From the UHGV virus genome UHGV-0276305: a DNA stretch of 36,129 bases; one strand, written 5' to 3'. This stretch comes from a virus. Position numbers and translations under genes: made by a program. Of this stretch, positions 892 to 27,616 are shown one piece after another. The notes below the pieces were generated by a model. It worked only from the letters and a program-made list of their open reading frames with translations. It did no database searches and was not told the origin of the DNA. Each line of letters opens with the position of its first letter. Within the stretch, counting starts at the first letter, position 1.

Positions 892-8910
<8,019 letters not shown>

Positions 8911-12894: not shown

Positions 12895-13343
12895 TATTCA
12901 TCTCGCTCGATAATAAATACGCCATTAACACGGTTGCAGTAATCTCTGCCTTCGTATCTGGCAGCATCACCATATTCTGTGTATTTCTTGACAGAGCAAG
13001 GATTATGACGACGCATGTCAATATCACACTGATTAATACCACCTGCATAGGGTAGTCCTGAAACAGAGCTTTTAACAAGGTCGTCATAAACAGCTTTCAG
13101 AGATTTGAATCTGGAAGAGTTACGTAAGTAAACACCACCAACTTTCTCATCTCCCATCTTGGCTACTTGAAAGAGTAAATATTTAAGAGCTTTGATGGCT
13201 GCTTTCTTTTCATCCTTTCCAGATTCTAGGTAGAACCACTCTAGCACAGACTGTTCAATAAGAATTTCGTCATTATTGGTGTCTGTGCAGAGGATTCTTA
13301 CTCTATCAAGAGGGTTATTGGCTGGGTCGCCTGTATAACACAT
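12894..13343 (-). CDS. hypothetical protein (head-tail connector region)
   Basis: 149-aa ORF downstream of capsid gene. Confidence 0.45.
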   Translation of the reverse strand: MCYTGDPANNPLDRVRILCTDTNNDEILIEQSVLEWFYLESGKDEKKAAIKALKYLLFQVAKMGDEKVGGVYLRNSSRFKSLKAVYDDLVKSSVSGLPYAGGINQCDIDMRRHNPCSVKKYTEYGDAARYEGRDYCNRVNGVFIIERDE

Positions 13344-13364
13344 TCATAACCCTCCTTAAGAATA

Positions 13365-14474
13365 TTAGTCTTTAGCGTCAGAACGAACATCTACCAGCAA
13401 CTGAGGACGAGTACAGTATGGCAGCATGTAAGAGTGAGCTTCAAAGTCGATACCTTCGTCACGGTCTTTTTCGTATTCGAATACGTATAGTTCCTGACCA
13501 AGTGTATTCGCATAACCCATCTTAGGACATGGGCCATATGCCACTTCGAAGATGTTGTTTGCTTCACCCAGCATAGAAACGTTAGGGAAAGCATGTCCTA
13601 CACCTACAGTTCCATCCTGAGTAACACCATCAATGCTAACCAGAGTGTGAACTTTACCACGCTTGTCTTTGAACTTACCGTTGTACTGGACAAACTTAAC
13701 ACCACCGTAGTAGAAGGTGTTCATATGAGCCTGAACGCCGTCAGCACCACCAGTTCTCAGAGAACCAGTAATCTGTTGCCAAGCCAGTGGAGTCTGCTGT
13801 GCAAGATAAGCGTCACGAATCTTAGGATGCTTAACCAGTTTGCTGAAGAATACACGGTCAACAACTACGTGAATCTCTTCACCGTTGATTACAGTGCCAG
13901 TCTTAGCTTCATCTTCCATGTGCATACGCAGTTCTTCAATAGAAGCGTCGATATCAGCATTAGGATTGTCAAGGTCGAAGTAAATAGTCTTCTTCTCAAC
14001 GTCGAACTGCTTGTACAGGTCAGCGTACAGAGTACCACGAGCATCAACAACTTTACCCTTCAGAGCTTGCATAAACAGGAACTCACGAGTAATATCGAAC
14101 TTGGTACGAATCTTCATCAGCTTCTTAGCACGTACTACAGCTTCAGTAGTCAGTTCGTTTGCAGTGCCTGGCTGACGTACACCCTGAATCTCATCAGGAG
14201 TAATGCTTTCAACTTCTTTGAAGTACATCATTGGGAAGCTGATTTGACGAACACGCTCAGGTGCGCTAGTCTCTGCTTTACGGCTATCACGGTCTACCGC
14301 GTCAAGCAAGCTAACATCCCAATCAGTCAAGTCCATAAGGAAAGTAGTTTGGGTGATTGGTGCTGAACGGAATAGACCTAAGTTGGAAATATACCCATAA
14401 GTATTTGGGATAGACTGGACTTCACCAGTCAGGTCAGCAAGGAAAAATCTGCTTTTTTCAGAATTAGTCAACAT
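13365..14474 (-). CDS. major capsid protein (possibly lambda gpE-like family)
   Basis: 369-aa ORF after protease and decoration genes; GGAG Shine-Dalgarno; noticeably GC-richer third positions than neighbours (high-expression bias). Confidence 0.7.
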   Translation of the reverse strand: MLTNSEKSRFFLADLTGEVQSIPNTYGYISNLGLFRSAPITQTTFLMDLTDWDVSLLDAVDRDSRKAETSAPERVRQISFPMMYFKEVESITPDEIQGVRQPGTANELTTEAVVRAKKLMKIRTKFDITREFLFMQALKGKVVDARGTLYADLYKQFDVEKKTIYFDLDNPNADIDASIEELRMHMEDEAKTGTVINGEEIHVVVDRVFFSKLVKHPKIRDAYLAQQTPLAWQQITGSLRTGGADGVQAHMNTFYYGGVKFVQYNGKFKDKRGKVHTLVSIDGVTQDGTVGVGHAFPNVSMLGEANNIFEVAYGPCPKMGYANTLGQELYVFEYEKDRDEGIDFEAHSYMLPYCTRPQLLVDVRSDAKD

Positions 14475-20615: not shown

Positions 20616-20691
20616 TGGAGAATCCGAAGGGACTCGAACCCTTATAAACCTGTTTTGCAGACAGGCACATAGCCATTTCTGTCACGGATTC
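20616..20691 (-). tRNA. tRNA-Cys (GCA)
   Basis: hand-folded: 7-bp acceptor GAATCCG/CGGATTC, anticodon arm CCTGT-CTGCAAA-ACAGG, T-arm AAGGG-TTCGAGT-CCCTT, CCA encoded. Confidence 0.8.
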
Positions 20692-20695
20692 AAAT

Positions 20696-20788
20696 TGGAG
20701 GAAGATACCAGACTTGAACTGGTACACCGATTTCTCAGCTACTGGCAGTTTAGCAAACTGCTCCCTTACCTTTTAGGGTTAATCTTCC
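20696..20788 (-). tRNA. tRNA-Ser (GCU), long variable arm
   Basis: 93 nt; acceptor GGAAGAT/ATCTTCC, anticodon arm GCAGT-TTGCTAA-ACTGC, T-arm ACCAG-TTCAAGT-CTGGT, CCA encoded. Confidence 0.75.
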
Positions 20789-20789
20789 A

Positions 20790-21533
20790 TTATTTCTGTA
20801 ATGCGTTCTTCATTTCTGGTGTTGCAATAGTGTCAATCACACCAGTTTTACAAGCATCATCAAACCAGTCTGGTAAGATACCTGCTAAGAACCCATTGAT
20901 ATTCGTTTTAAGGTACTCTGCAATAAGAGCAGCTTCTTCTTCAATCATCTGCACAACTTCATCTGCATAAGCTGTAATCTTCGAAATACCTTCATTAATC
21001 TTACTAACAGCTTGGTTAGCTAAATCAGAAATAGTATCAAGACCTTTGTCAATAGCATCTTGTAAGTCACTTAATACACCATTAACACTATCTAGTGTAC
21101 TGTTCATCATGTCAATAGCTTTTTGACCATACTCTGTAGCAACACCCATGATACCACTGAATGGTGTACAACCAACTTGTTCTCCTGCTGCACCCATAAC
21201 ATTGGAATACCCCTTTGCTACCTGCATACGTGATGAAAACTCATCAATAGACTTTTGACCGTAGTCTGTCAGAGTTTTAGTAGTTGCTGTAGTGCTTGTA
21301 AGGCTTGTTGTAAAGCTGTTTAGAAGGACTGTTGTAAGTCCAGCAGCAACAAGTTTCTCCTTCATTGTAGGGTCTGTTACAGAACTAATAGAGCTTACAA
21401 GTGATGTAGAAGCAGCTACGGTTCCACCGAGAACTGCTGCACCAGTAATAAGCGGGTTAGAGAACCCTTTACCGGTTTTTAAGAGATTAAAAATCTCCTT
21501 ACCTTGTTCTGTCATCTCTTTCATTAAGCACCT
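20790..21533 (-). CDS. hypothetical protein embedded at edge of tRNA cluster
   Basis: ORF track gives 20790..21587, but the first 18 codons overlap a tRNA-like gene; start more likely the MKEM Met at 21533; hydrophobic N-terminal segment then Ala/Thr-rich and helical regions. Confidence 0.5.
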   Translation of the reverse strand, partial: RCLMKEMTEQGKEIFNLLKTGKGFSNPLITGAAVLGGTVAASTSLVSSISSVTDPTMKEKLVAAGLTTVLLNSFTTSLTSTTATTKTLTDYGQKSIDEFSSRMQVAKGYSNVMGAAGEQVGCTPFSGIMGVATEYGQKAIDMMNSTLDSVNGVLSDLQDAIDKGLDTISDLANQAVSKINEGISKITAYADEVVQMIEEEAALIAEYLKTNINGFLAGILPDWFDDACKTGVIDTIATPEMKNALQK

Positions 21534-21540
21534 TTGAAAT

Positions 21541-21617
21541 TGGTAGTCCAGTGGGATTTGAACCCTCTTCTCATGTTTTTCAGACACGCGCTTTAACCAT
21601 ATAAGCTACTTGGACTA
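21541..21617 (-). tRNA. atypical tRNA-like gene, anticodon GAA (Phe-like)
   Basis: perfect 7-bp acceptor TAGTCCA/TGGACTA, D-stem GCTT/AAGC, anticodon arm CGTGT-CTGAAAA-ACATG, T-loop TTCAAAT; but 2 extra nt between acceptor and U8 and an A-A mismatch in T-stem. Confidence 0.35.
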
Positions 21618-21622
21618 TAAAT

Positions 21623-21698
21623 TGGGGTGACCTACGGGATTTGAACCCGTATAGACCATGTTCACAGCATGGGTCATTACCATTTATGATAAGGCCAC
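21623..21698 (-). tRNA. tRNA-His (GUG)
   Basis: acceptor GTGGCCT/AGGTCAC, D-stem TCAT/ATGA, anticodon arm CCATG-CTGTGAA-CATGG, T-arm ACGGG-TTCAAAT-CCCGT, CCA encoded. Confidence 0.8.
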
Positions 21699-21704
21699 AT
21701 TTAA

Positions 21705-21724
21705 GGACTCTCGTAAGAACCCTT
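21705..21724 (-). promoter_or_regulatory. conserved ~20-nt motif (plus-strand GGACTCTCGTAAGAACCCTT) just upstream of tRNA-His
   Basis: near-identical copies at 25261-25281 and a diverged copy at 24326-24347, each a few nt upstream (in the transcription direction) of an RNA gene. Confidence 0.3.
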
Positions 21725-21729
21725 AGAAG

Positions 21730-21805
21730 TGGCAGCGGCATAAGGATTTGAACCTTAATAGGACAGCTTCAGAGACTGTTGCATTGCCAGTTATGCTATA
21801 CCGCT
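21730..21805 (-). tRNA. tRNA-Gln (CUG)
   Basis: acceptor AGCGGTA/TGCCGCT, D-stem GCAT/ATGC, anticodon arm ACAGT-CTCTGAA-GCTGT, T-arm TAAGG-TTCAAAT-CCTTA, CCA encoded. Confidence 0.75.
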
Positions 21806-21810
21806 AAATT

Positions 21811-21889
21811 TGGTACTCCATATCGGATTCGAACCGATACATAACACAGATTTTAAGTCTGGCCTCTCTGCCAATTGGAGTAATGGAGC
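21811..21889 (-). tRNA. tRNA with anticodon UAA (Leu by anticodon; short variable loop)
   Basis: 79 nt; acceptor GCTCCAT/ATGGAGT, D-loop AATTGGCAGAG (Leu-like), anticodon loop CTTAAAA, T-arm ATCGG-TTCGAAT-CCGAT, A73, CCA encoded; variable loop only about 7 nt. Confidence 0.6.
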
Positions 21890-21891
21890 AT

Positions 21892-21967
21892 TGGCGGGGG
21901 ATGTTGGAATTGAACCAACTTCTTCGATTTCAAAGACCGAGGTTTTAACCTTGTAAACTAATCCCCT
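21892..21967 (-). tRNA. tRNA-Gln (UUG)
   Basis: acceptor with 1:72 A-C mismatch, D-stem GTTT/AAAC, anticodon arm TCGGT-CTTTGAA-ATCGA, T-arm GTTGG-TTCAATT-CCAAC, CCA encoded. Confidence 0.7.
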
Positions 21968-21975
21968 TTAAATCT

Positions 21976-22533
21976 TTACTTTCTCAGTGGATGAATAAAG
22001 AATGCCAACATAACTCTTTCCCTTGAGAATGCTCTTTCTTCTGGGACAACACTTTTTAGTTTCCATCCAATATAAATTCTCCAGTAAAACTGTTTACCAA
22101 AGACTTTGATTGATGGGATAAAAGCGAATAATCCCCAAGCATTACTGTTCCACATTAGGAGATAACCAGTCTGATTATCTTCAGGGTTAGAACTTACGTT
22201 GATATTACCTTTCCACTTAGTAACATCTTTTACATCTCTTCCTAATACATGGTAAGAGAAGTTATAAGCTTTGTTTCTCCAGAGCCATCCAACTCTCTGC
22301 ATGTAGACACCAAGCTTACCAATCTTTCTAATCTTAGCCCATCTCTCAACGTGGCCTTTGTCACCATCAATAGGGTTGTCATAGGTCTCCATCCATCTGA
22401 ATCCAAAAGGTAGATGCCCTTTCTTCTCACTGTAGAATGGAACTACGAAAGGTGCTAAGATGACTGCTAGGGTTGCTGCAAATGGTTCTAACAAAGCTAA
22501 GAAAACCCATGAAGCATACTTCAAATATCTCAT
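21976..22533 (-). CDS. hypothetical membrane-anchored protein inside tRNA cluster
   Basis: 185-aa ORF between tRNA genes; hydrophobic N-terminus (WVFLALLEPFAATLAVILAPFVVPF), Trp/Lys-rich remainder. Confidence 0.55.
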   Translation of the reverse strand: MRYLKYASWVFLALLEPFAATLAVILAPFVVPFYSEKKGHLPFGFRWMETYDNPIDGDKGHVERWAKIRKIGKLGVYMQRVGWLWRNKAYNFSYHVLGRDVKDVTKWKGNINVSSNPEDNQTGYLLMWNSNAWGLFAFIPSIKVFGKQFYWRIYIGWKLKSVVPEERAFSRERVMLAFFIHPLRK

Positions 22534-22552
22534 CTAAATAGCCTCTTTAAAT

Positions 22553-22628
22553 TGGCGCAGGATAAGGGATTCGAACCCCTATTAACAGCTTCGTAGACTG
22601 TTGCTCTATCCATTTGAACTAATCCTGC
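22553..22628 (-). tRNA. tRNA-Arg (ACG)
   Basis: acceptor GCAGGAT/ATCCTGC, anticodon arm ACAGT-CTACGAA-GCTGT, T-arm AGGGG-TTCGAAT-CCCTT, CCA encoded. Confidence 0.8.
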
Positions 22629-22633
22629 AAAAT

Positions 22634-22711
22634 TGGTGTTCCAAGACGGATTCGAACCGTCACTAGTACAAGGTTTGAGCTTGCATCCTCTGCCAATTGG
22701 GATACTGGAAC
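22634..22711 (-). tRNA. tRNA with anticodon CAA (Leu by anticodon; short variable loop)
   Basis: 78 nt; acceptor GTTCCAG/TTGGAAC, D-loop AATTGGCAGAG, anticodon arm GCAAG-CTCAAAC-CTTGT, T-arm GACGG-TTCGAAT-CCGTC, A73, CCA encoded; variable loop about 6 nt. Confidence 0.6.
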
Positions 22712-22712
22712 A

Positions 22713-22787
22713 TGGTACTCACTAAAGGACTTGAACCTTTTTCTTCATCTTGTAAGGGTGATGTTTTACCATATAAACTAAGCGAGT
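22713..22787 (-). tRNA. tRNA-Val (UAC)
   Basis: acceptor ACTCGCT/AGTGAGT, D-stem GTTT/AAAC, anticodon loop CTTACAA, T-arm AAAGG-TTCAAGT-CCTTT, CCA encoded. Confidence 0.75.
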
Positions 22788-22790
22788 GTG

Positions 22791-22878
22791 AAAGAGGTCT
22801 GAAGTTGTGCCGCTAACTCAACTCCGTGGAATTTGTTACGGTCTTCAGTTGACACCAGCGGTCTTTCACTTGACCTCT
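22791..22878. ncRNA. structured spacer: ~88-nt extended hairpin between tRNA-Val and tRNA-Thr
   Basis: outer 7-bp pairing agaggtc (22793-22799) with gacctct (22872-22878), inner tgaag/cttca pairing; no canonical T-loop so not callable as tRNA. Confidence 0.3.
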
Positions 22879-22882
22879 GAAT

Positions 22883-22958
22883 TGGTGCTCCCACAAGGAT
22901 TCGAACCCTGATAAGTTGCTTACAAGGCAACCGTAATAGCCAATTATACGATAGGAGC
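22883..22958 (-). tRNA. tRNA-Thr (UGU)
   Basis: acceptor GCTCCTA/TGGGAGC, anticodon arm GTTGC-CTTGTAA-GCAAC, T-arm CAGGG-TTCGAAT-CCTTG, CCA encoded. Confidence 0.8.
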
Positions 22959-22965
22959 ATTAATT

Positions 22966-23040
22966 TGGAGCATCCAGAGGGAATCGAACCCTCAACCTCA
23001 GTTTGGAAGACTGTAATTTTCCCGTTTAAACTATGGATGC
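22966..23040 (-). tRNA. tRNA-Gly (UCC)
   Basis: acceptor GCATCCA/TGGATGC, D-stem GTTT/AAAT, anticodon loop CTTCCAA, T-arm GAGGG-TTCGATT-CCCTC, CCA encoded. Confidence 0.75.
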
Positions 23041-23046
23041 ACTAAT

Positions 23047-23122
23047 TGGTGGAGAAGCAGGGGATTGAACCCTGTACTTAAGTTTGCAAAACTTATGTTT
23101 TAACCATGTAAACTACATCCCC
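23047..23122 (-). tRNA. tRNA-Ala (UGC)
   Basis: acceptor GGGGATG with G3-U70 wobble, D-stem GTTT/AAAC, anticodon arm TAAGT-TTTGCAA-ACTTA, T-arm CAGGG-TTCAATC-CCCTG, A73, CCA encoded. Confidence 0.75.
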
Positions 23123-23128
23123 AATGTT

Positions 23129-23204
23129 TGGTACAGGTGGAGGGAATTGAACCCATCGTCTTACTGATTAAGAGTCAGCCGCATAACCATTTTGCTACAC
23201 CTGC
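23129..23204 (-). tRNA. tRNA-Lys (CUU)
   Basis: acceptor GCAGGTG/CACCTGT, anticodon arm GCTGA-CTCTTAA-TCAGT, T-loop TTCAATT with imperfect T-stem (ATGGG/CCCTC), CCA encoded. Confidence 0.65.
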
Positions 23205-23211
23205 ATTAATT

Positions 23212-23289
23212 TGGTAGGAGACAAGGGATTCGAACCCTCAAACACCAACTTCTAAGGATGGTAGGTTTACCAATTACCGTCAATCTCCC
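23212..23289 (-). tRNA. tRNA with anticodon UAG (Leu by anticodon; short variable loop)
   Basis: 78 nt; acceptor GGGAGAT/GTCTCCT, D-loop contains TAATTGGTAAA, anticodon loop CTTAGAA (stem has one T-T mismatch), T-arm GAGGG-TTCGAAT-CCCTT, A73, CCA encoded. Confidence 0.5.
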
Positions 23290-23364
23290 ATTAAATCTTT
23301 TTAGAGAACTTCTAAGAACCTAAGCAACAAGGTTCCACAACAAGCTGTAATAACCTTAGAAGCC

Positions 23365-23390
23365 CTCTAAAAAGACCTAAAAAGGTCTTT
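23365..23390 (-). terminator. terminator-like hairpin inside tRNA cluster
   Basis: minus-strand AAAGACC-UUUUUA-GGUCUUU then UUAGAG; U-tract partly within stem. Confidence 0.35.
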
Positions 23391-23547
23391 GCATAGTCTT
23401 GTTTAATCCGGTGACTAGAACCTTTGGAGAGCTTGATATTATCTCTTCTCCGTGACACCTACTAGGTGTTTTATCTGTGTGTACGACAATACACGAGGGA
23501 TAAACCGAAAATGCGAGCAAGCATGGACGGTGTAAAATCTTATTAGG

Positions 23548-23635
23548 CGGTAAGTAAAGGAGTCGAACCCTCACCGTATCTCTACAGTGGCAACTGTTTT
23601 CAAGACAGTTTGGCTACCATTAGCCGCTACCTACC
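23548..23635 (-). tRNA. tRNA-Ser (UGA), long variable arm
   Basis: 88 nt; acceptor GGTAGGT/ACTTACC, anticodon arm ACTGT-CTTGAAA-ACAGT, about 20-nt variable arm, T-arm GAGGG-TTCGACT-CCTTT; CCA not encoded. Confidence 0.7.
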
Positions 23636-23648
23636 CCTAATAAGACTT

Positions 23649-23731
23649 TGGCATGGGACGGAGGAGTTGAACCACTTTGAAACGGTTTTGGAGGCCGTTG
23701 CTCATGCCTTAGAGTCTTAACATCGTCCCAC
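23649..23731 (-). tRNA. atypical tRNA-like gene, anticodon CCA (Trp-like)
   Basis: 83 nt; acceptor GTGGGAC/GTCCCAT, anticodon loop CTCCAAA on ACGGC/ACCGT stem, CCA encoded; D region about 7 nt too long and T-stem AGTGG/CCTCC has 2 mismatches. Confidence 0.4.
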
Positions 23732-23868
23732 ACTATAATTCGAAGCTTACCGTATTATCTCAACACTGTAAAGCCCCTTCTCAGATTATTTACATGTTCT
23801 GGAAAACATGAGATACAGACCACCTCCTTACACGGAGACCCGATAAGGTCGTCTAAGCAATCTGCTAA

Positions 23869-24216
23869 CTAATACTTTGCATGTCTTACCCTATGGCAAT
23901 TTGAACATAGCAAAACACATTTGTCAAGTTCATCTTTTAGTTCTTGAGAGAACTTCAGACTTTTTCTATGACCAATGTTAAAATCTTTCTCTGAAGGATT
24001 CAAATGATGGAAGTCATACACTGCTGGATGATACCTTTTACCACAATCATGACAAACCCCACCTTTGTACTCAATAGCTGAAAGTTTAAGTGCTCTTTGT
24101 CTTTCTATGGTTTGCTCATTAACACACTTTTTACAGTATGAATGAGTTCTCTTACCATCTTTCATGTAGAAATCATTTTCATCCTTGCTAAGTTTGCACC
24201 TAATACAAGTTTTCAT
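23869..24216 (-). CDS. HNH homing-endonuclease-like protein
   Basis: about 116 aa from MKTCIRCK (ORF-track N-terminal extension overlaps a tRNA-like gene); CxxC..CxxC zinc-finger-like N-terminus and HNH core (YDFHHLNP ... N ... LLCSNCHRVRH). Confidence 0.8.
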   Translation of the reverse strand: MKTCIRCKLSKDENDFYMKDGKRTHSYCKKCVNEQTIERQRALKLSAIEYKGGVCHDCGKRYHPAVYDFHHLNPSEKDFNIGHRKSLKFSQELKDELDKCVLLCSNCHRVRHAKY

Positions 24217-24230
24217 GATTTCTCCAAAAT

Positions 24231-24312
24231 TGGTCGAGGCGGCAGGACTCGAACCCGCATACTCCACTTACTCGGTTAACGGCGGTTTAGAAGACCGCTG
24301 AGATACGCCCCG
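24231..24312 (-). tRNA. atypical tRNA-like gene, anticodon UCU (Arg-like)
   Basis: 82 nt; acceptor CGGGGCG/CGCCTCG, canonical T-arm GCGGG-TTCGAGT-CCTGC, CCA encoded, perfect anticodon arm GCGGT-CTTCTAA-ACCGC; no recognisable D-arm and an extra 23-nt segment before the T-arm. Confidence 0.4.
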
Positions 24313-24325
24313 TAATTATCTTTAA

Positions 24326-24347
24326 AGACTCTCTTAGAAAGCCCTTA
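24326..24347 (-). promoter_or_regulatory. diverged copy of the conserved ~20-nt motif, just upstream of the Arg-like tRNA
   Basis: plus-strand agactctcttagaaagccctta versus ggactctcgtaagaaccctta at 21705. Confidence 0.25.
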
Positions 24348-24649
24348 AAGATGCCCACTTTATTAATCATACCGTGGGCTAGTACGCCAAATTCTTTGAT
24401 GAGGGATTGGAAGACCTCACTGGTGTTTAGCCTATCAAGCTACTGCCAGAAAAACATTGTCGTTTGCATTTATTTTAAATTTGCAAAATAGACGCTACGC
24501 AACGAAAACTATTCAGAATATGTACAACAAATTTCCCCACATTGTGTTACGTCTAACGCTCATGTATTGGTGTTTGAATTATACATATTATGAAGTATTT
24601 TAGTTACTATAAAGTGGTCACATCTCAATGTCAACAACTTTATTGAAAT

Positions 24650-24725
24650 TGGTACTGGTAGGTGGAATCGAACCACCGATGTTCCCTTATCAGGGGAGTG
24701 TTATAACCTTCTTAACTATACCAGC
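24650..24725 (-). tRNA. tRNA-Ile (GAU)
   Basis: acceptor GCTGGTA/TACCAGT, D-stem GTTA/TAAC, anticodon loop CTGATAA, T-arm GGTGG-TTCGATT-CCACC, CCA encoded. Confidence 0.75.
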
Positions 24726-24726
24726 T

Positions 24727-24803
24727 TGGAGGTTCAGATGGGAATCGAACCCACATTCATAGGGCTTATGAGACCCTTGCATTACCTTATCTGCGACTGA
24801 ACC
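24727..24803 (-). tRNA. tRNA-Met (CAU)
   Basis: acceptor GGTTCAG/CTGAACC, anticodon arm AGGGT-CTCATAA-GCCCT, T-arm GTGGG-TTCGATT-CCCAT, CCA encoded. Confidence 0.75.
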
Positions 24804-24807
24804 ATTT

Positions 24808-24883
24808 TGGTAGAAGTGGAGGGATTCGAACCCATCGCCTGTCAGATTAAAAGTCTGCCGCATCACCATTCTGCTACACTTCC
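24808..24883 (-). tRNA. tRNA-Lys (UUU)
   Basis: acceptor GGAAGTG/CACTTCT, anticodon loop CTTTTAA, T-loop TTCGAAT with same imperfect T-stem as tRNA-Lys(CUU), CCA encoded. Confidence 0.65.
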
Positions 24884-24887
24884 ATTA

Positions 24888-25031
24888 AATTATCTTTGTA
24901 GATAAGCTACCCAGACTTGCTTAAGGTCTGTAGCGATGTGCCTTTTTGGGTTTAAATCTAGAATTTACCCTTTCACCCTTTGTGGTCGCATACTCACAGG
25001 TAAGCTTAATAACTTATCTACAAAGATAATT
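24888..25031. repeat. 19-bp perfect inverted repeat flanking a ~106-bp core (long-stem structured element)
   Basis: 24888-24906 (aattatctttgtagataag) is the exact reverse complement of 25013-25031; core contains further short hairpins. Confidence 0.6.
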
Positions 25032-25032
25032 A

Positions 25033-25163
25033 CCAGACCGTTGTTTATCATCTTAAGTGCTACCATTACACCAACTCGACATCTGCCGAGTGAAGGAATC
25101 GAACCTTCGCCTTTTCTTTACCGAGAAATAGATTGTTTAAGTTTTGCTGTAAACGGTCTTCTG
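25033..25163. repeat. repeated spacer element copy A (ccagacc ... gtttgctg-N-ggtcttctg), contains a tRNA 3' fragment
   Basis: shares 5' ccagacc and 3' ttgctgNaaNggtcttctg with three other copies. Confidence 0.5.
25084..25108 (-). pseudogene. tRNA 3' fragment (T-arm plus acceptor 3' strand), no matching 5' half found
   Basis: GAAGG-TTCGATT-CCTTC T-arm followed by ACTCGGC; no complementary GCCGAGT within 100 nt upstream. Confidence 0.35.
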
Positions 25164-25176
25164 TAAATTTGTTGAG

Positions 25177-25250
25177 CCAGACCAAGTTTTAAATTTTTCA
25201 AAATTAAATTGGCTTGAAATTTTAAGTAACTTGCTGTATTTGGTCTTCTG
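25177..25250. repeat. repeated spacer element copy D
   Basis: ccagacc at 25177-25183 ... cttgctgtatttggtcttctg ending 25250. Confidence 0.5.
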
Positions 25251-25260
25251 CTCCTTTAAA

Positions 25261-25281
25261 GGATACTCGTAAGAACCCTTT
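25261..25281 (-). promoter_or_regulatory. second copy of the conserved ~20-nt motif (plus-strand GGATACTCGTAAGAACCCTTT)
   Basis: matches 21705-21724 at 18 of 20 positions; lies just upstream (in the transcription direction) of spacer copy D. Confidence 0.3.
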
Positions 25282-25311
25282 AAGGGAGGGGCTAAATAGC
25301 CCTCTCAAAAT

Positions 25312-25389
25312 TGGCGGTTACGAAGGGATTTGAACCCTCATCATCTCCCGTGACAGGGGAGTATTTTAACCAAATTAAACTACATAACC
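25312..25389 (-). tRNA. tRNA-Asp (GUC)
   Basis: acceptor GGTTATG/CGTAACC, D-stem GTTT/AAAT, anticodon arm CTCCC-CTGTCAC-GGGAG, T-arm GAGGG-TTCAAAT-CCCTT, CCA encoded. Confidence 0.8.
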
Positions 25390-25394
25390 TTTAT

Positions 25395-25482
25395 TGGTGT
25401 GCCGTGTAGGAGTCGAACCTACCGAGTCTCAATGACAAGGGATTTACAGTCCCCACCGCTACCATCTACGGGATAACGACAC
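25395..25482 (-). tRNA. tRNA-Tyr (GUA), long variable arm
   Basis: 88 nt; acceptor GTGTCGT/ACGGCAC, anticodon arm GGGGA-CTGTAAA-TCCCT, about 15-nt variable arm, T-arm GTAGG-TTCGACT-CCTAC, CCA encoded. Confidence 0.75.
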
Positions 25483-25551
25483 ATTTAATTTCTATTCAGG
25501 CTAAGGACTTGCACCTTACAAATCGGTGAGCAATTGCTTCTCTCCTAAATT

Positions 25552-25628
25552 TGGCGGTTAGTCAGGGATTCGAACCCTGTGCCATTCGCTTAACAGGCGA
25601 CCGCACATACCTTATGTGCTTCCTAACC
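25552..25628 (-). tRNA. tRNA-Asn (GUU)
   Basis: acceptor GGTTAGG/ACTAACC (one mismatch), D-stem GCAC/GTGC, anticodon loop CTGTTAA, T-arm CAGGG-TTCGAAT-CCCTG, CCA encoded. Confidence 0.75.
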
Positions 25629-25639
25629 TTAATACATTG

Positions 25640-25699
25640 CCAGACCGTGTTTTTTCTTTTATCCGCAAAAAGTAGTTTGTTGCTGAATACGGTCTTCTG
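25640..25699. repeat. repeated spacer element copy B
   Basis: ccagacc at 25640-25646 ... gtttgttgctgaatacggtcttctg ending 25699; directly abuts the 3' end of the next tRNA. Confidence 0.5.
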
Positions 25700-25705
25700 C
25701 AAAAT

Positions 25706-25782
25706 TGGAGGCGGGTGCAGGAGTCGAACCTACCGATACCATGCTAATGAGACATGTGAGACGCCCTTTCTCTATACCCGCA
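25706..25782 (-). tRNA. tRNA with anticodon CAU (Met, initiator or Ile2; unresolved)
   Basis: anticodon arm CATGT-CTCATTA-GCATG, T-arm GTAGG-TTCGACT-CCTGC, CCA encoded; position 1:72 unpaired (T-C) and 3 nt between acceptor and D-stem. Confidence 0.6.
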
Positions 25783-25793
25783 ATTCTTAATGA

Positions 25794-25866
25794 CCAGACC
25801 AAATCTCTTCTTTGTCCGATTTCGTGTCAGATGAATAAGATTAAGTTTGCTGCAATTGGTCTTCTG
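25794..25866. repeat. repeated spacer element copy C
   Basis: ccagacc at 25794-25800 ... gtttgctgcaattggtcttctg ending 25866. Confidence 0.5.
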
Positions 25867-25873
25867 TCAAAAC

Positions 25874-25951
25874 TGGCGTTCCAGAAGGGATTTGAACCCT
25901 CAAATATCCACTTTGAAAGAGTGGTGACTTTACCGTTTTGTCTACTGGAAC
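25874..25951 (-). tRNA. tRNA-Glu (UUC)
   Basis: acceptor GTTCCAG/CTGGAAC, anticodon arm CCACT-CTTTCAA-AGTGG, T-arm GAGGG-TTCAAAT-CCCTT, CCA encoded. Confidence 0.8.
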
Positions 25952-25958
25952 ATTAATT

Positions 25959-26035
25959 TGGTCTCTGTTGGAGGACTTGAACCTCCGGCCTTACCGCCCC
26001 AAACGGAACGCTCTACCAAGCTGAGCTAAACAGAG
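25959..26035 (-). tRNA. tRNA-Pro (UGG)
   Basis: acceptor CTCTGTT/AACAGAG, D-arm GCTC-AGCTTGGTA-GAGC, anticodon loop TTTGGGG, T-arm GGAGG-TTCAAGT-CCTCC, CCA encoded. Confidence 0.8.
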
Positions 26036-26200: not shown

Positions 26201-27616
26201 TTACCAGATATAACGGTCAATCATTACTGCTTTGAGCATTACACTAATTGGGTCAAACTTCTCACCACCAAGCAGAGCTTTTAAAGTGGCTGGAGAGAAA
26301 CCAGATACCATTGCTACACCGTTATCCTTAACAGATACTTCGCAAGTGCCATTACGGTTTGCTAAGTACCAGAATACCAGTTGTGGCATCTCATATCCAG
26401 CTTTTTTGTACTTACTCTGAATTGCTTCAAAGTTTGTACGACCGTTAGCTCCATCAACCTGATTGAACTCCATATCAGAGAAGATGATAAGCTTACTTGG
26501 CATATCTTTCTGAGTCAAGTTATTTCTCTTACCTGTCTCAAGAATGCGGTCAAAAGCTGCTTGTAAGTTAGTTGAACCGTATTCAACATGACGCATTACC
26601 TGACGATGACGGTTTCGTAAATCACCACTCAGTTCAATGAAGTGAGGGTTTGTTGAATAAACCATCAACTCATTCTTAAAGCAACCTGTATTACGTTCTG
26701 CTACATACAATGCAAGTGAAACACCAATATCAAGAGCAGTAATTGAACCAAAATTCACCCAAGACATTGAACTTGAAACATCAGACATACATAGAATGTT
26801 TTCACCCTCTGCCATCCAGTTTGGTAGTGCTTTCCACTGCTCATTAGCAACATCTGCATTACCATACTTAACAGATTTAATCACATCGTATGGGTAAACA
26901 GCACCAGCATTAATCTTAGTCTCACCCTTTGATAAGGACTCGATGTAAGCTTTGTAGCGTTCTCCATCTTTACGGTTAAACAGTTTTTGGTAACGTGCAG
27001 CAGCAAGTGAAGGAATCTTACTGTAGTCAATCTTACCAAACTCATTAGCAGAGATTTTTTGCTCAACTGTATCAGATAGTGCAGACAACAGTGTGCGGTA
27101 CTCTTTCTCACTCAAGTTGGCAAACTTACAGAAACGTTTTACAAACTGTTTGTGACGTGGTTTTACTCGTGGTAACCACTTAGCTGCTAAACCTGCTGTT
27201 GCAGGGTCTAGTAAAGCTGCTTCTAAATGTTTGAAGGCATCTGTCTCGAAACGAGTACCTACAAAGATTTTGAAGTCATCAAAGCGACCAAGCTCTGCAA
27301 TCTTATCCATAATGCGAAGAACCTGCGTAGGCTCTAAAACTTTATCTTCAATCGCTTGAAGTAAAACAGTTCGGAAAGCTTTACGCTCACCCATACCTTC
27401 TCGTACATCTCGCATATGCAGTAAAATACGAACTGCAACATCAGCATCCTCATGCAAAGCTTTGTAGAACAAGTCTGGTAAGATTTCTACATTGCTACGG
27501 CTAGAACCAGCAGCTTTGTAAAAGTCTACAAGAGCAGACATTGATGAAGTATGGTTTACAGCACCATTTTCAGTTCGACCTGCATGAAGGTGCGCATGTT
27601 TAAATAATTCGCTCAT
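26201..27616 (-). CDS. vWA-domain protein with N-terminal helical domain (candidate Ro60/TROVE-like RNA-binding protein)
   Basis: 471-aa ORF; C-terminal half has MIDAS-type DxSxS (MSDVSSSMS) and downstream T and D positions (GSTNL, LIIFSDMEFN) typical of vWA folds; N-terminal about 250 aa predicted helical; Ro60 relationship is inference from architecture and genomic context. Confidence 0.6.
   Translation of the reverse strand: MSELFKHAHLHAGRTENGAVNHTSSMSALVDFYKAAGSSRSNVEILPDLFYKALHEDADVAVRILLHMRDVREGMGERKAFRTVLLQAIEDKVLEPTQVLRIMDKIAELGRFDDFKIFVGTRFETDAFKHLEAALLDPATAGLAAKWLPRVKPRHKQFVKRFCKFANLSEKEYRTLLSALSDTVEQKISANEFGKIDYSKIPSLAAARYQKLFNRKDGERYKAYIESLSKGETKINAGAVYPYDVIKSVKYGNADVANEQWKALPNWMAEGENILCMSDVSSSMSWVNFGSITALDIGVSLALYVAERNTGCFKNELMVYSTNPHFIELSGDLRNRHRQVMRHVEYGSTNLQAAFDRILETGKRNNLTQKDMPSKLIIFSDMEFNQVDGANGRTNFEAIQSKYKKAGYEMPQLVFWYLANRNGTCEVSVKDNGVAMVSGFSPATLKALLGGEKFDPISVMLKAVMIDRYIW

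Follow-up and report, generated by a model that had tools for sequence, protein, structure and literature searches.

Three transfer RNA (tRNA)-like genes with the anticodons GAA (Phe), CCA (Trp) and UCU (Arg) lie in the tRNA array of UHGV-0276305, a viral DNA of 36,129 nucleotides (nt) that is referred to here, at its full length, as the window. The window is a Felix O1-type phage of the genus Felixounavirus, and the 3.3-kb stretch around the three genes has matches in 323 phage records, with 95-99% identity in 237. We read all three as phage tRNA genes, two of which, the Trp-like and the Arg-like gene, would have a non-standard architecture kept by selection; sequence comparison leads us to give this reading a probability of about 0.6. 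The Arg-like gene probably represents a family confined to phages that descends from tRNA-Arg(UCU) and no longer has the D hairpin, and the Trp-like gene appears, with comparable likelihood, to be an Ounavirinae-specific tRNA-Trp with a fixed 7-nt insertion before the D-stem and an open position 31.39, while the Phe gene is an ordinary, slightly irregular tRNA. ARAGORN counts 25 tRNAs for 19 amino acids in the array, Trp and Arg(UCU) not being among them; it finds the Phe gene in near-standard form and misses the Trp-like and Arg-like genes even with relaxed scoring. The positions and the anticodon loops CTGAAAA (Phe), CTCCAAA (Trp-like) and CTTCTAA (Arg-like) given by the initial annotation were confirmed, all on the minus strand, and stem covariation in relatives sets the genes apart from chance matches. 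Standard cloverleaves at shifted boundaries, the outcome that the initial annotation named as its own refutation, were obtained for the Phe gene only. In alignments with related phages the Trp-like and Arg-like genes are conserved in their non-standard form, and the Phe gene is annotated as tRNA-Phe. Coordinates of the genes and their parts are collected in Table 1.

The Rfam tRNA model scored the Arg-like gene at 31.7 bits (threshold 29), with the D-arm deleted and 20 nt inserted before the T-arm. This agrees with the earlier description of a gene that lacks a D-arm and has extra nucleotides before the T-arm, except that the D-arm is replaced and not simply lost: no true D-arm was found upstream, and a helix spanning the anticodon arm stands in place of the D hairpin. 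The family alignment has 82 columns and one indel. From the 5' end, its consensus consists of the acceptor strand (7 nt), the linker UAU, the helix strand CNN and a single N, followed by an anticodon arm with a 5-bp stem and the loop [C/U]UUCUA[A/C], the bulge C-R-U-U-A-A-N-N and the helix strand NNG. The D-loop-like segment U-A-A-(N)-Y-G-G-A-G-U-A-U comes next, and the molecule is completed by a 5-bp T-arm with the loop UUCGARU, the second acceptor strand (7 nt), a G/A discriminator and usually CCA. The triplet that immediately precedes the anticodon stem is thus predicted to pair with three nucleotides located 8 nt 3' of this stem, and the D-loop-like AAnUGGAGUA plus a U would follow this helix and lead directly into the T-stem. 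Pairing of the linker TCA with the TGG of the D-loop-like motif was considered as well and rejected, since it fails in the CGCC group, while CNN/NNG pairs in all variants.

Covariation is found throughout the Arg-like molecule. In a set of 26 sequences, 98.7% of the cells hold standard pairs and 14 of the 20 pairs are changed on both sides; none of 500 shuffles equalled this pairing, and slid partners were paired at 45% or less. The CNN/NNG helix enclosing the anticodon arm is paired in all 151 variants listed, in 13 combinations (CTC/GAG 77, CGC/GCG 24, CAC/GTG 18, CGG/CCG 8 and others), with slid registers reaching 44% at most. Seven acceptor pairs are present in 139 of these 151 variants and five T-stem pairs, with the loop TTCGART, in 143, and the discriminator is G or A in 144. 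The 7-nt anticodon loop reads [C/T]TTCTA[A/C] on a covarying stem, with U33 and a purine at 37 as in a standard anticodon arm. The three long helices of the family were recovered independently by RNAalifold. When the T-arm was left free in the search, the T-stem was found to covary and the YGGAGUAU segment to be invariant; a search with a free anticodon arm added 17 variants, every one of them with UCU in the context CTTCTA[AC]. One variant has the anticodon CCU, which also decodes Arg. In the metagenomic phage array of locus L035, this CCU-anticodon member lies at 12999-13080 and a divergent UCU relative at ~13346-13429, whose post-anticodon segment TAATTGGATAGAACAT contains the exact canonical D-loop AATTGGATA (AAUUGGAUA); the Arg-like family is therefore wider than the search patterns.

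The family is widespread among phages. A BLAST search with the 82-nt gene retrieved 263 GenBank phage records at 82-100% identity, and full-length copies at 82-90% identity occur in Sugarlandvirus (T5-like), Justusliebigvirus, Klebsiella myoviruses, a Serratia phage, Streptomyces phages and jumbo phages of 310-383 kb; in nearly all GenBank records among the matches listed the gene carries no tRNA annotation. Through pattern scans, three of IMG/VR and one of metagenomes, in which different parts of the molecule were left free each time, at least 151 distinct variants were collected from at least 216 viral and metagenome loci. By comparison, the genomes of 185,579 bacterial and archaeal species (one genome each) gave a single match, on a contig of a metagenome-assembled genome. 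On this evidence the Arg-like family is confined to phages.

The Trp-like gene gave no match to the Rfam tRNA model (RF00005) at E ≤ 10, and its sole Rfam match was to tRNA-Sec, at 21 bits and under the threshold of 47 for that model. The over-long D region noted at first corresponds to the invariant insert TGTTAAG, so that the D hairpin is present but begins 9 nt past the acceptor stem. The mismatched T-stem was likewise borne out: it consists of four pairs and an A.C mismatch found in every relative, to which the window allele adds a U.U that it shares with contig L163, the other variants having G.U there. Besides the insert, the fixed features of the family are a C31.A39-type mismatch and the A49.C65 mismatch; position 31.39 is never paired, so the anticodon stem below the loop CUCCAAA is effectively shifted by one pair. 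In the eight variants available, 99.3% of the cells are paired and eight pairs are compensated, spread over the acceptor, D, anticodon and T stems, and the single unpaired cell is the T-stem U.U of the window itself. Most variants have A1-U72, and G73 and the loop CUCCAAA accompany it, in agreement with E. coli tRNA-Trp and its identity set. The gene was found in 236 records, all of Ounavirinae type, down to 75% identity in Pectobacterium phage Arno18; pattern scans for members outside Ounavirinae gave chance matches only. A canonical 71-nt tRNA-Trp takes the slot of the Trp-like gene, accompanied by an HNH-like open reading frame (ORF), in about 23 related records. No other gene of the array has a Trp anticodon, and with the remaining genes covering 19 amino acids the Trp-like gene would supply the twentieth. 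In the Moogle-like phage Sf14, tRNAs were counted for 19 amino acids (PMC12482277). A tRNA-Trp with a 4-bp anticodon stem has been connected with UGA readthrough (PMC13092985), an idea that is not directly applicable here because it concerns the top pair 27-43 and the open pair of the Trp-like gene is the bottom one, 31.39.

Genomic context points to a tRNA role for both odd genes. The Ile-to-Ser interval was compared in 18 Ounavirinae loci, of which nine have the Arg-like and nine the canonical Arg gene, and 15 have the Trp-like and three the canonical Trp gene; in neither case does a locus have both forms or neither, and none of these genomes has a second gene with the anticodon of its odd gene. 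The initial annotation had offered decaying pseudogenes as one explanation, such as might be left by turnover of tRNAs in the array. Standard tRNA finders do fail on two of the three genes, several mismatches are present (the window Trp-like allele has one T-stem mismatch more than most relatives), and tRNA-His of Felix O1 is flagged as a pseudogene in RefSeq. Decay is at odds, on the other hand, with compensatory changes that hold about 99% of the pairs in both families, with invariant anticodon loops, with conservation of the Arg-like gene from coliphages to Streptomyces phages and with an alternation of odd and canonical alleles that leaves none of the 18 loci without either form. Because of the covariation, the pseudogene explanation is largely refuted, and we regard it as highly improbable. 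The further option of tRNAs carrying small insertions fits the Phe and Trp-like genes; it understates the Arg-like gene, with its covarying helix and D-loop-like segment.

In the wider Arg-like set, tRNAs were found nearby in 173 of 215 loci, and the presence of an encoded CCA in the Arg-like gene tracks that in the neighbouring tRNAs (76 + 23 loci concordant, 19 discordant). There are arrays of 15-28 tRNAs that hold the Arg-like gene and are without a canonical Arg(UCU), and ARAGORN made a 'tct' call in 3 of the 53 Arg-like arrays with at least 10 tRNAs. Some of the 'tct' calls elsewhere in the Arg-like set are forced fits to the Arg-like gene itself; calls of a 91-96-nt 'tRNA-Arg(tct)' on some relatives were likewise dismissed as forced fits that use the flanks and have poor acceptor stems. 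The codon AGA accounts for 54% of the Arg codons in the ORFs of the window (22.7 per 1000 codons) and is among the rarest codons of E. coli. Furthermore, the identity elements of E. coli arginyl-tRNA synthetase (ArgRS) are A20, C35, U36 and A/G73, and counterparts of all of them were found in the Arg-like gene. The AAnUGGAGUA after the short helix matches the D-loop AAUUGGAUA of canonical phage tRNA-Arg(TCT), and the T-arms are alike.

Following this, we propose that the Arg-like RNA would reach the tRNA fold along a different chain path. Normal tRNAs have a D-stem whose 22-25 strand is continuous with the anticodon stem and whose 10-13 strand extends this helix after position 44. In the Arg-like RNA, the CNN strand would stand in place of 23-25 and be reached straight from U8-A9, and the NNG-U strand would stand in place of 10-13 and be reached from the anticodon stem via the 8-nt bulge, after which the D-loop (A14, A15, G18 G19, A20, A21) and a U in place of residue 48 would lie beside the T-stem. 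Each of the three changed connections (9 to 22, 44/45 to 10 and 21 to 48) links residues lying side by side in the known structure of tRNA. For this reason an L-shape is plausible in which U8.A14, A15.U48 and the contacts of G18G19 to the T-loop are kept and the strand order is changed. The RNA would presumably be cut from the array transcript like its neighbours, charged by the host ArgRS, as its identity nucleotides suggest, and used to read AGA, the commonest Arg codon of the phage. We put forward tentatively, at somewhat less than even odds, that the 82-nt RNA is aminoacylated and works fully as a tRNA-Arg with a topologically rewired core. Recognition of the canonical gene or RNA by tRNA-directed nucleases of the host or by homing endonucleases might spare such a tRNA, which could explain its spread among phages.

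Several observations weigh against the interpretation of the odd genes as structurally modified tRNAs. The match of the Arg-like gene to the tRNA tertiary core is reasoning from sequence and textbook structure only, its 3-bp helix is not predicted by RNAalifold on energy grounds and minimum-free-energy z-scores are unremarkable. Much of the Arg-like set came from patterns that fixed parts of the molecule, each part being free in at least one other search, and five loci hold both the Arg-like gene and a canonical Arg(UCU). For the Trp-like gene, covariation was assessed on just eight variants, and the window allele carries the additional U.U mismatch. On laboratory hosts, the tRNAs of phage Bas63 are mostly non-essential (PMC11482910). 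Finally, 11 Arg-like variants are without CCA and stand on a leader-trailer helix of 12-15 bp, which is unusual for a tRNA gene; the subgroup is distributed over the loci L018, L053, L057, L061, L190, L205, L245, L247, L250, L271 and L304, and in L304 the extension amounts to 6 bp. The extension helices differ in sequence between lineages, the tRNAs neighbouring these extended variants are ordinary, with CCA encoded and no such helix, and L061 carries a canonical tRNA-Arg(TCT) besides its extended variant.

These 11 variants, with their long terminal helix and absent CCA, are among the features that would suit tRNA mimics, either Y-RNA-like partners of a Ro60-like protein or decoys for nucleases or toxins directed at tRNA-Arg(UCU) or tRNA-Trp. 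Two further points that tell against a tRNA function belong here: immediately upstream of the array lies the gene for a protein of 471 amino acids (aa) with DUF2828 and DUF7788 (PHROG 850, 'RNA-binding protein'), and the homologue gp130 of Bas63 was reported in a preprint to be structurally Ro60-like, some Felixounavirus tRNA genes being suggested as Y RNAs (PMC11482910). Yrn1 of D. radiodurans resembles a tRNA in its T-arm, anticodon-like arm and D-loop features and has no full D-arm (PMC4201824), and Ro60-like homologues occur near the Arg-like gene in five or six unrelated loci. Homologues of the 471-aa protein with 24-44% identity lie beside tRNA arrays on the unrelated metagenomic phage contigs L053, L067, L196, L236 and L215; a PDB sequence search with the protein returned no match. 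Nevertheless, we consider mimicry unlikely. In 102 of the 151 Arg-like variants listed, the 7-bp acceptor stem is followed by N73-CCA, the Arg identity nucleotides and the Arg-only anticodon are conserved, and the odd genes alternate strictly with canonical tRNAs in the same slot. The extension helices have no conserved sequence and hence no common Ro-binding motif, about 97% of the Arg-like loci show no Ro60-like gene in the stretches examined, and Ounavirinae with the canonical Arg allele retain the Ro60-like gene as well. Rfam gave no match to YrlA (RF02553) over any of the three genes and no significant match to YrlA or transfer-messenger RNA, the motif GNCGAAN0-1G was not seen by eye in them, and their arm order is that of a normal tRNA. 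A much better Y-RNA-like candidate lies elsewhere in the array (25033-25163), next to a Ro60-like gene. The three genes may conceivably be tRNA-derived regulatory RNAs, the remaining option of the initial annotation, and the array holds better candidates for that role, the one at 25033-25163 among them.

As first described, the Arg-like gene adjoins an HNH-like ORF, whose ATG at 24216 is 14 nt downstream. This ORF does not form part of the RNA and is a presence/absence polymorphism, missing after the identical 82-nt gene in other Felixounaviruses, and the Arg-like gene of Sugarland and PHA46 is followed by HNH genes of another family, HNH_3, as opposed to the weak PF01844 similarity in the window; a dedicated cassette of tRNA-like gene and HNH gene is ruled out by these differing families and by the absence beside identical elements. 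Free-standing homing endonucleases in phage tRNA clusters promote inheritance of their flanks, as shown for SegB of T4 and proposed for F-Tfl of T5 (PMC2330249). The neighbouring HNH genes would then be independent mobile insertions, probably driving swaps of alternative tRNA alleles between phages, and cassette exchange seems to be concentrated in the Ile-to-Ser interval. It might even be argued that the odd sequences are cleavage-resistant DNA alleles carried with HNH cassettes and that their RNA products are dispensable. In Felixounavirus, Sugarland, PHA46 and L016 the Arg-like gene is followed within 8-70 nt by an HNH-type ORF, an HNH-like ORF accompanies the canonical Trp allele, a canonical Arg gene followed by an HNH gene occupies the same slot in Sf16, and homing endonucleases are known from the T4 and T5 tRNA clusters (PMC2330249). 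We judge this very unlikely, seeing that the HNH genes are of different families and often missing beside identical elements, that most Arg-like loci have no HNH gene nearby and that covarying stems together with fixed loops and linkers indicate selection on RNA structure and not on a DNA target site. In detail, a weak HNH-like ORF (L003, VpaE1_ev78, 2750-3154) was observed beside the canonical tRNA-Trp, and the ORF after the canonical tRNA-Arg(TCT) of Sf16 (L051, 992-1339) is annotated as 'HNH homing endonuclease' and has no Pfam match.

Among the known systems closest to the Arg-like gene is the canonical tRNA-Arg(UCU) of bacteria and phages, exemplified by the 77-nt gene that phage CL1 carries at this slot; E. 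coli argU and the tRNA-Arg of T4 are other examples. Both forms have the loop CUUCUAA, similar T-arms (GCRGG UUCGART CCYGY in the Arg-like gene, ACAGG UUCGAAU CCUGU in CL1), a 7-bp acceptor stem, an A/G discriminator, an encoded CCA and the D-loop-type AAUUGGA..A. The Arg-like gene differs in having no D hairpin between acceptor and anticodon stems, a D-stem-like helix across the anticodon arm, the D-loop-like segment 3' of that arm, the 8-nt bulge CRUUAANN and a length of 82 nt. Lack of a conventional D hairpin and invisibility to standard finders are shared with the mitochondrial D-armless tRNA-Ser(AGY) and the armless mitochondrial tRNAs of nematodes and mites. These mitochondrial tRNAs are shortened and work with co-evolved mitochondrial factors (PMC1636415, PMC12221289). 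In contrast, the Arg-like RNA exceeds the normal length, retains D-loop-like nucleotides and would depend on the ordinary bacterial translation apparatus. Allo-tRNAs and the 8/4 or 9/3 tRNAs of bacteria and their phages, which set a precedent for non-canonical cloverleaves, were found by dedicated searches only (Mukai et al., 2017, PMC5389517); they change the acceptor/T split and keep the D-arm, whereas the Arg-like gene has the normal 7/5 split and a rebuilt D region. Bacterial Y RNAs (YrlA; Yrn1 of D. radiodurans) are tRNA-like and encoded beside Ro60-type genes, phages included (PMC4201824). Their two ends form a long stem, with GNCGAAN0-1G close to the 5' end, and the arms of the tRNA-like domain are ordered V, T, acceptor hairpin, D; the three genes differ from them in their normal 5'-to-3' arm order, 7-bp acceptor stem with CCA and true 7-nt anticodon loops. 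In full-text literature searches of incomplete coverage, no prior description of the rewired tRNA-Arg architecture was found, its nearest precedents being D-armless mitochondrial tRNAs, allo-tRNAs (PMC5389517) and Yrn1 (PMC4201824).

The shape of tRNA is among the most conserved features of biology, and accepted deviations outside mitochondria are few. If the proposed fold is correct, ordinary bacterial ArgRS, EF-Tu and ribosomes would accept a third architecture of tRNA, and the function of such a rewired molecule on the ribosomes of E. coli or Salmonella would reveal the real latitude of the tRNA core. This is directly testable in easily grown phages (Felix O1, Bas63-type, T5-like and rV5-like). 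Since the Arg-like gene is mostly unannotated, studies of codon usage and tRNA complement undercount Arg(UCU) and Trp, for example in Sf14. The odd genes also bear on the role of phage tRNAs as counter-defence against tRNA-cleaving immune systems.

For the Phe gene, three registers can be drawn. That of ARAGORN (21541-21616) has an A7.C66 mismatch and a 3-nt spacer; that of the Rfam tRNA model (21545-21615, 45 bits, threshold 29) leaves two acceptor positions unpaired. The perfect-helix register has the 7-bp stem TAGTCCA/TGGACTA, then AGTA (4 nt and not 2) before the D-stem, and leaves the gene without a discriminator base before CCA. The 2-nt insertion after the acceptor stem that had been suspected is thus one real register, to which ARAGORN and Rfam prefer others, with 1-2 extra nucleotides or A7.C66. 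The acceptor stem and T-arm form with one mismatch or in a shifted register, the T-stem has an A.A mismatch, the anticodon arm is intact and the D hairpin is present 3-4 nt after the acceptor stem. Every annotated relative labels the gene tRNA-Phe, and in a Felixounavirus variant (L042) the acceptor stem is changed compensatorily with the irregularity kept. The overlap with the start of a protein gene, also suspected, holds only for the GTG of the longest ORF at 21587; the start annotated in relatives is the ATG at 21525, which leaves 15 nt between the tRNA and the ORF downstream.

Table 1. Positions of the tRNA array, the three tRNA-like genes with their parts, and neighbouring features in the window.
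Feature	Position	Strand	Basis or remark
tRNA array holding the three genes	20616-26035	minus	ARAGORN
tRNA-Phe(GAA)	21541-21617	minus	ARAGORN, Rfam, annotation in relatives
Non-canonical tRNA-Trp(CCA)-like gene, 83 nt	23649-23731	minus	Alignment of Ounavirinae variants
Trp-like, U.U mismatch of the window allele	23674/23662	minus	
Trp-like, anticodon	23689-23691	minus	
Trp-like, invariant 7-nt insert TGTTAAG	23716-23722	minus	Between position 9 and the 3-bp D-stem
HNH-like endonuclease ORF, 115 aa	23872-24216	minus	Weak Pfam HNH, 16.7 bits, below cutoff; HNH annotated in relatives
Non-canonical tRNA-Arg(UCU)-like gene, 82 nt	24231-24312	minus	Rfam tRNA, covariation
Arg-like, acceptor stem	24306-24312 / 24235-24241	minus	
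Arg-like, 3-bp helix	24300-24302 / 24271-24273	minus	
Arg-like, anticodon arm	24282-24298	minus	Anticodon 24289-24291
Arg-like, bulge CGTTAACC	24274-24281	minus	
Arg-like, D-loop-like segment TAAGTGGAGTAT	24259-24270	minus	
Arg-like, T-arm	24242-24258	minus	
Arg-like, ACCA 3' end	24231-24234	minus	
Y-RNA/YrlA-like RNA candidate, ~131 nt	25033-25163	minus	Between tRNA-Lys(UUU) and tRNA-Asp
471-aa protein	26201-27616	minus	Pfam DUF2828 + DUF7788, PHROG 850

The Y-RNA-like candidate consists, in this order, of an outer stem AGACCG/CGGTCT, a variable hairpin TTTCT/AGAAA, a T-arm GAAGG-TTCGATT-CCTTC, a closed acceptor-like hairpin ACTCGGC-AGAT-GTCGAGT and a D-arm GTGT-AATGGTA-GCAC, an arrangement that puts the 3' half of a tRNA ahead of the 5' half. 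Among relatives, covariation is seen in the acceptor-like hairpin, which is ACCCTTC/GAAGGGT with the loop GCCAAACA in the Moogle type and ACACG/CGTGT in the Sf16 type. The candidate gave no Rfam match to YrlA. On the same strand, four exact copies of CAGAAGACC-N5-CAGCAA were found (25144-25163, 25231-25250, 25680-25699 and 25847-25866; 0.1 expected by chance), and GGTCTGG, able to pair with AGACC, lies 35-110 nt downstream of each CAGAAGACC copy. The four copies look like a putative family of stem-closed small RNAs or processing elements, one of which encloses the Y-RNA-like domain. Two further structured segments were observed on the minus strand: a long near-perfect hairpin just downstream of tRNA-Leu(UAG) (23290-23385), with a sub-threshold Rfam match to MIR473 at 32.7 bits, and a strongly folding 95-nt spacer between tRNA-Val and tRNA-Thr (22788-22882; -30.7 kcal/mol).

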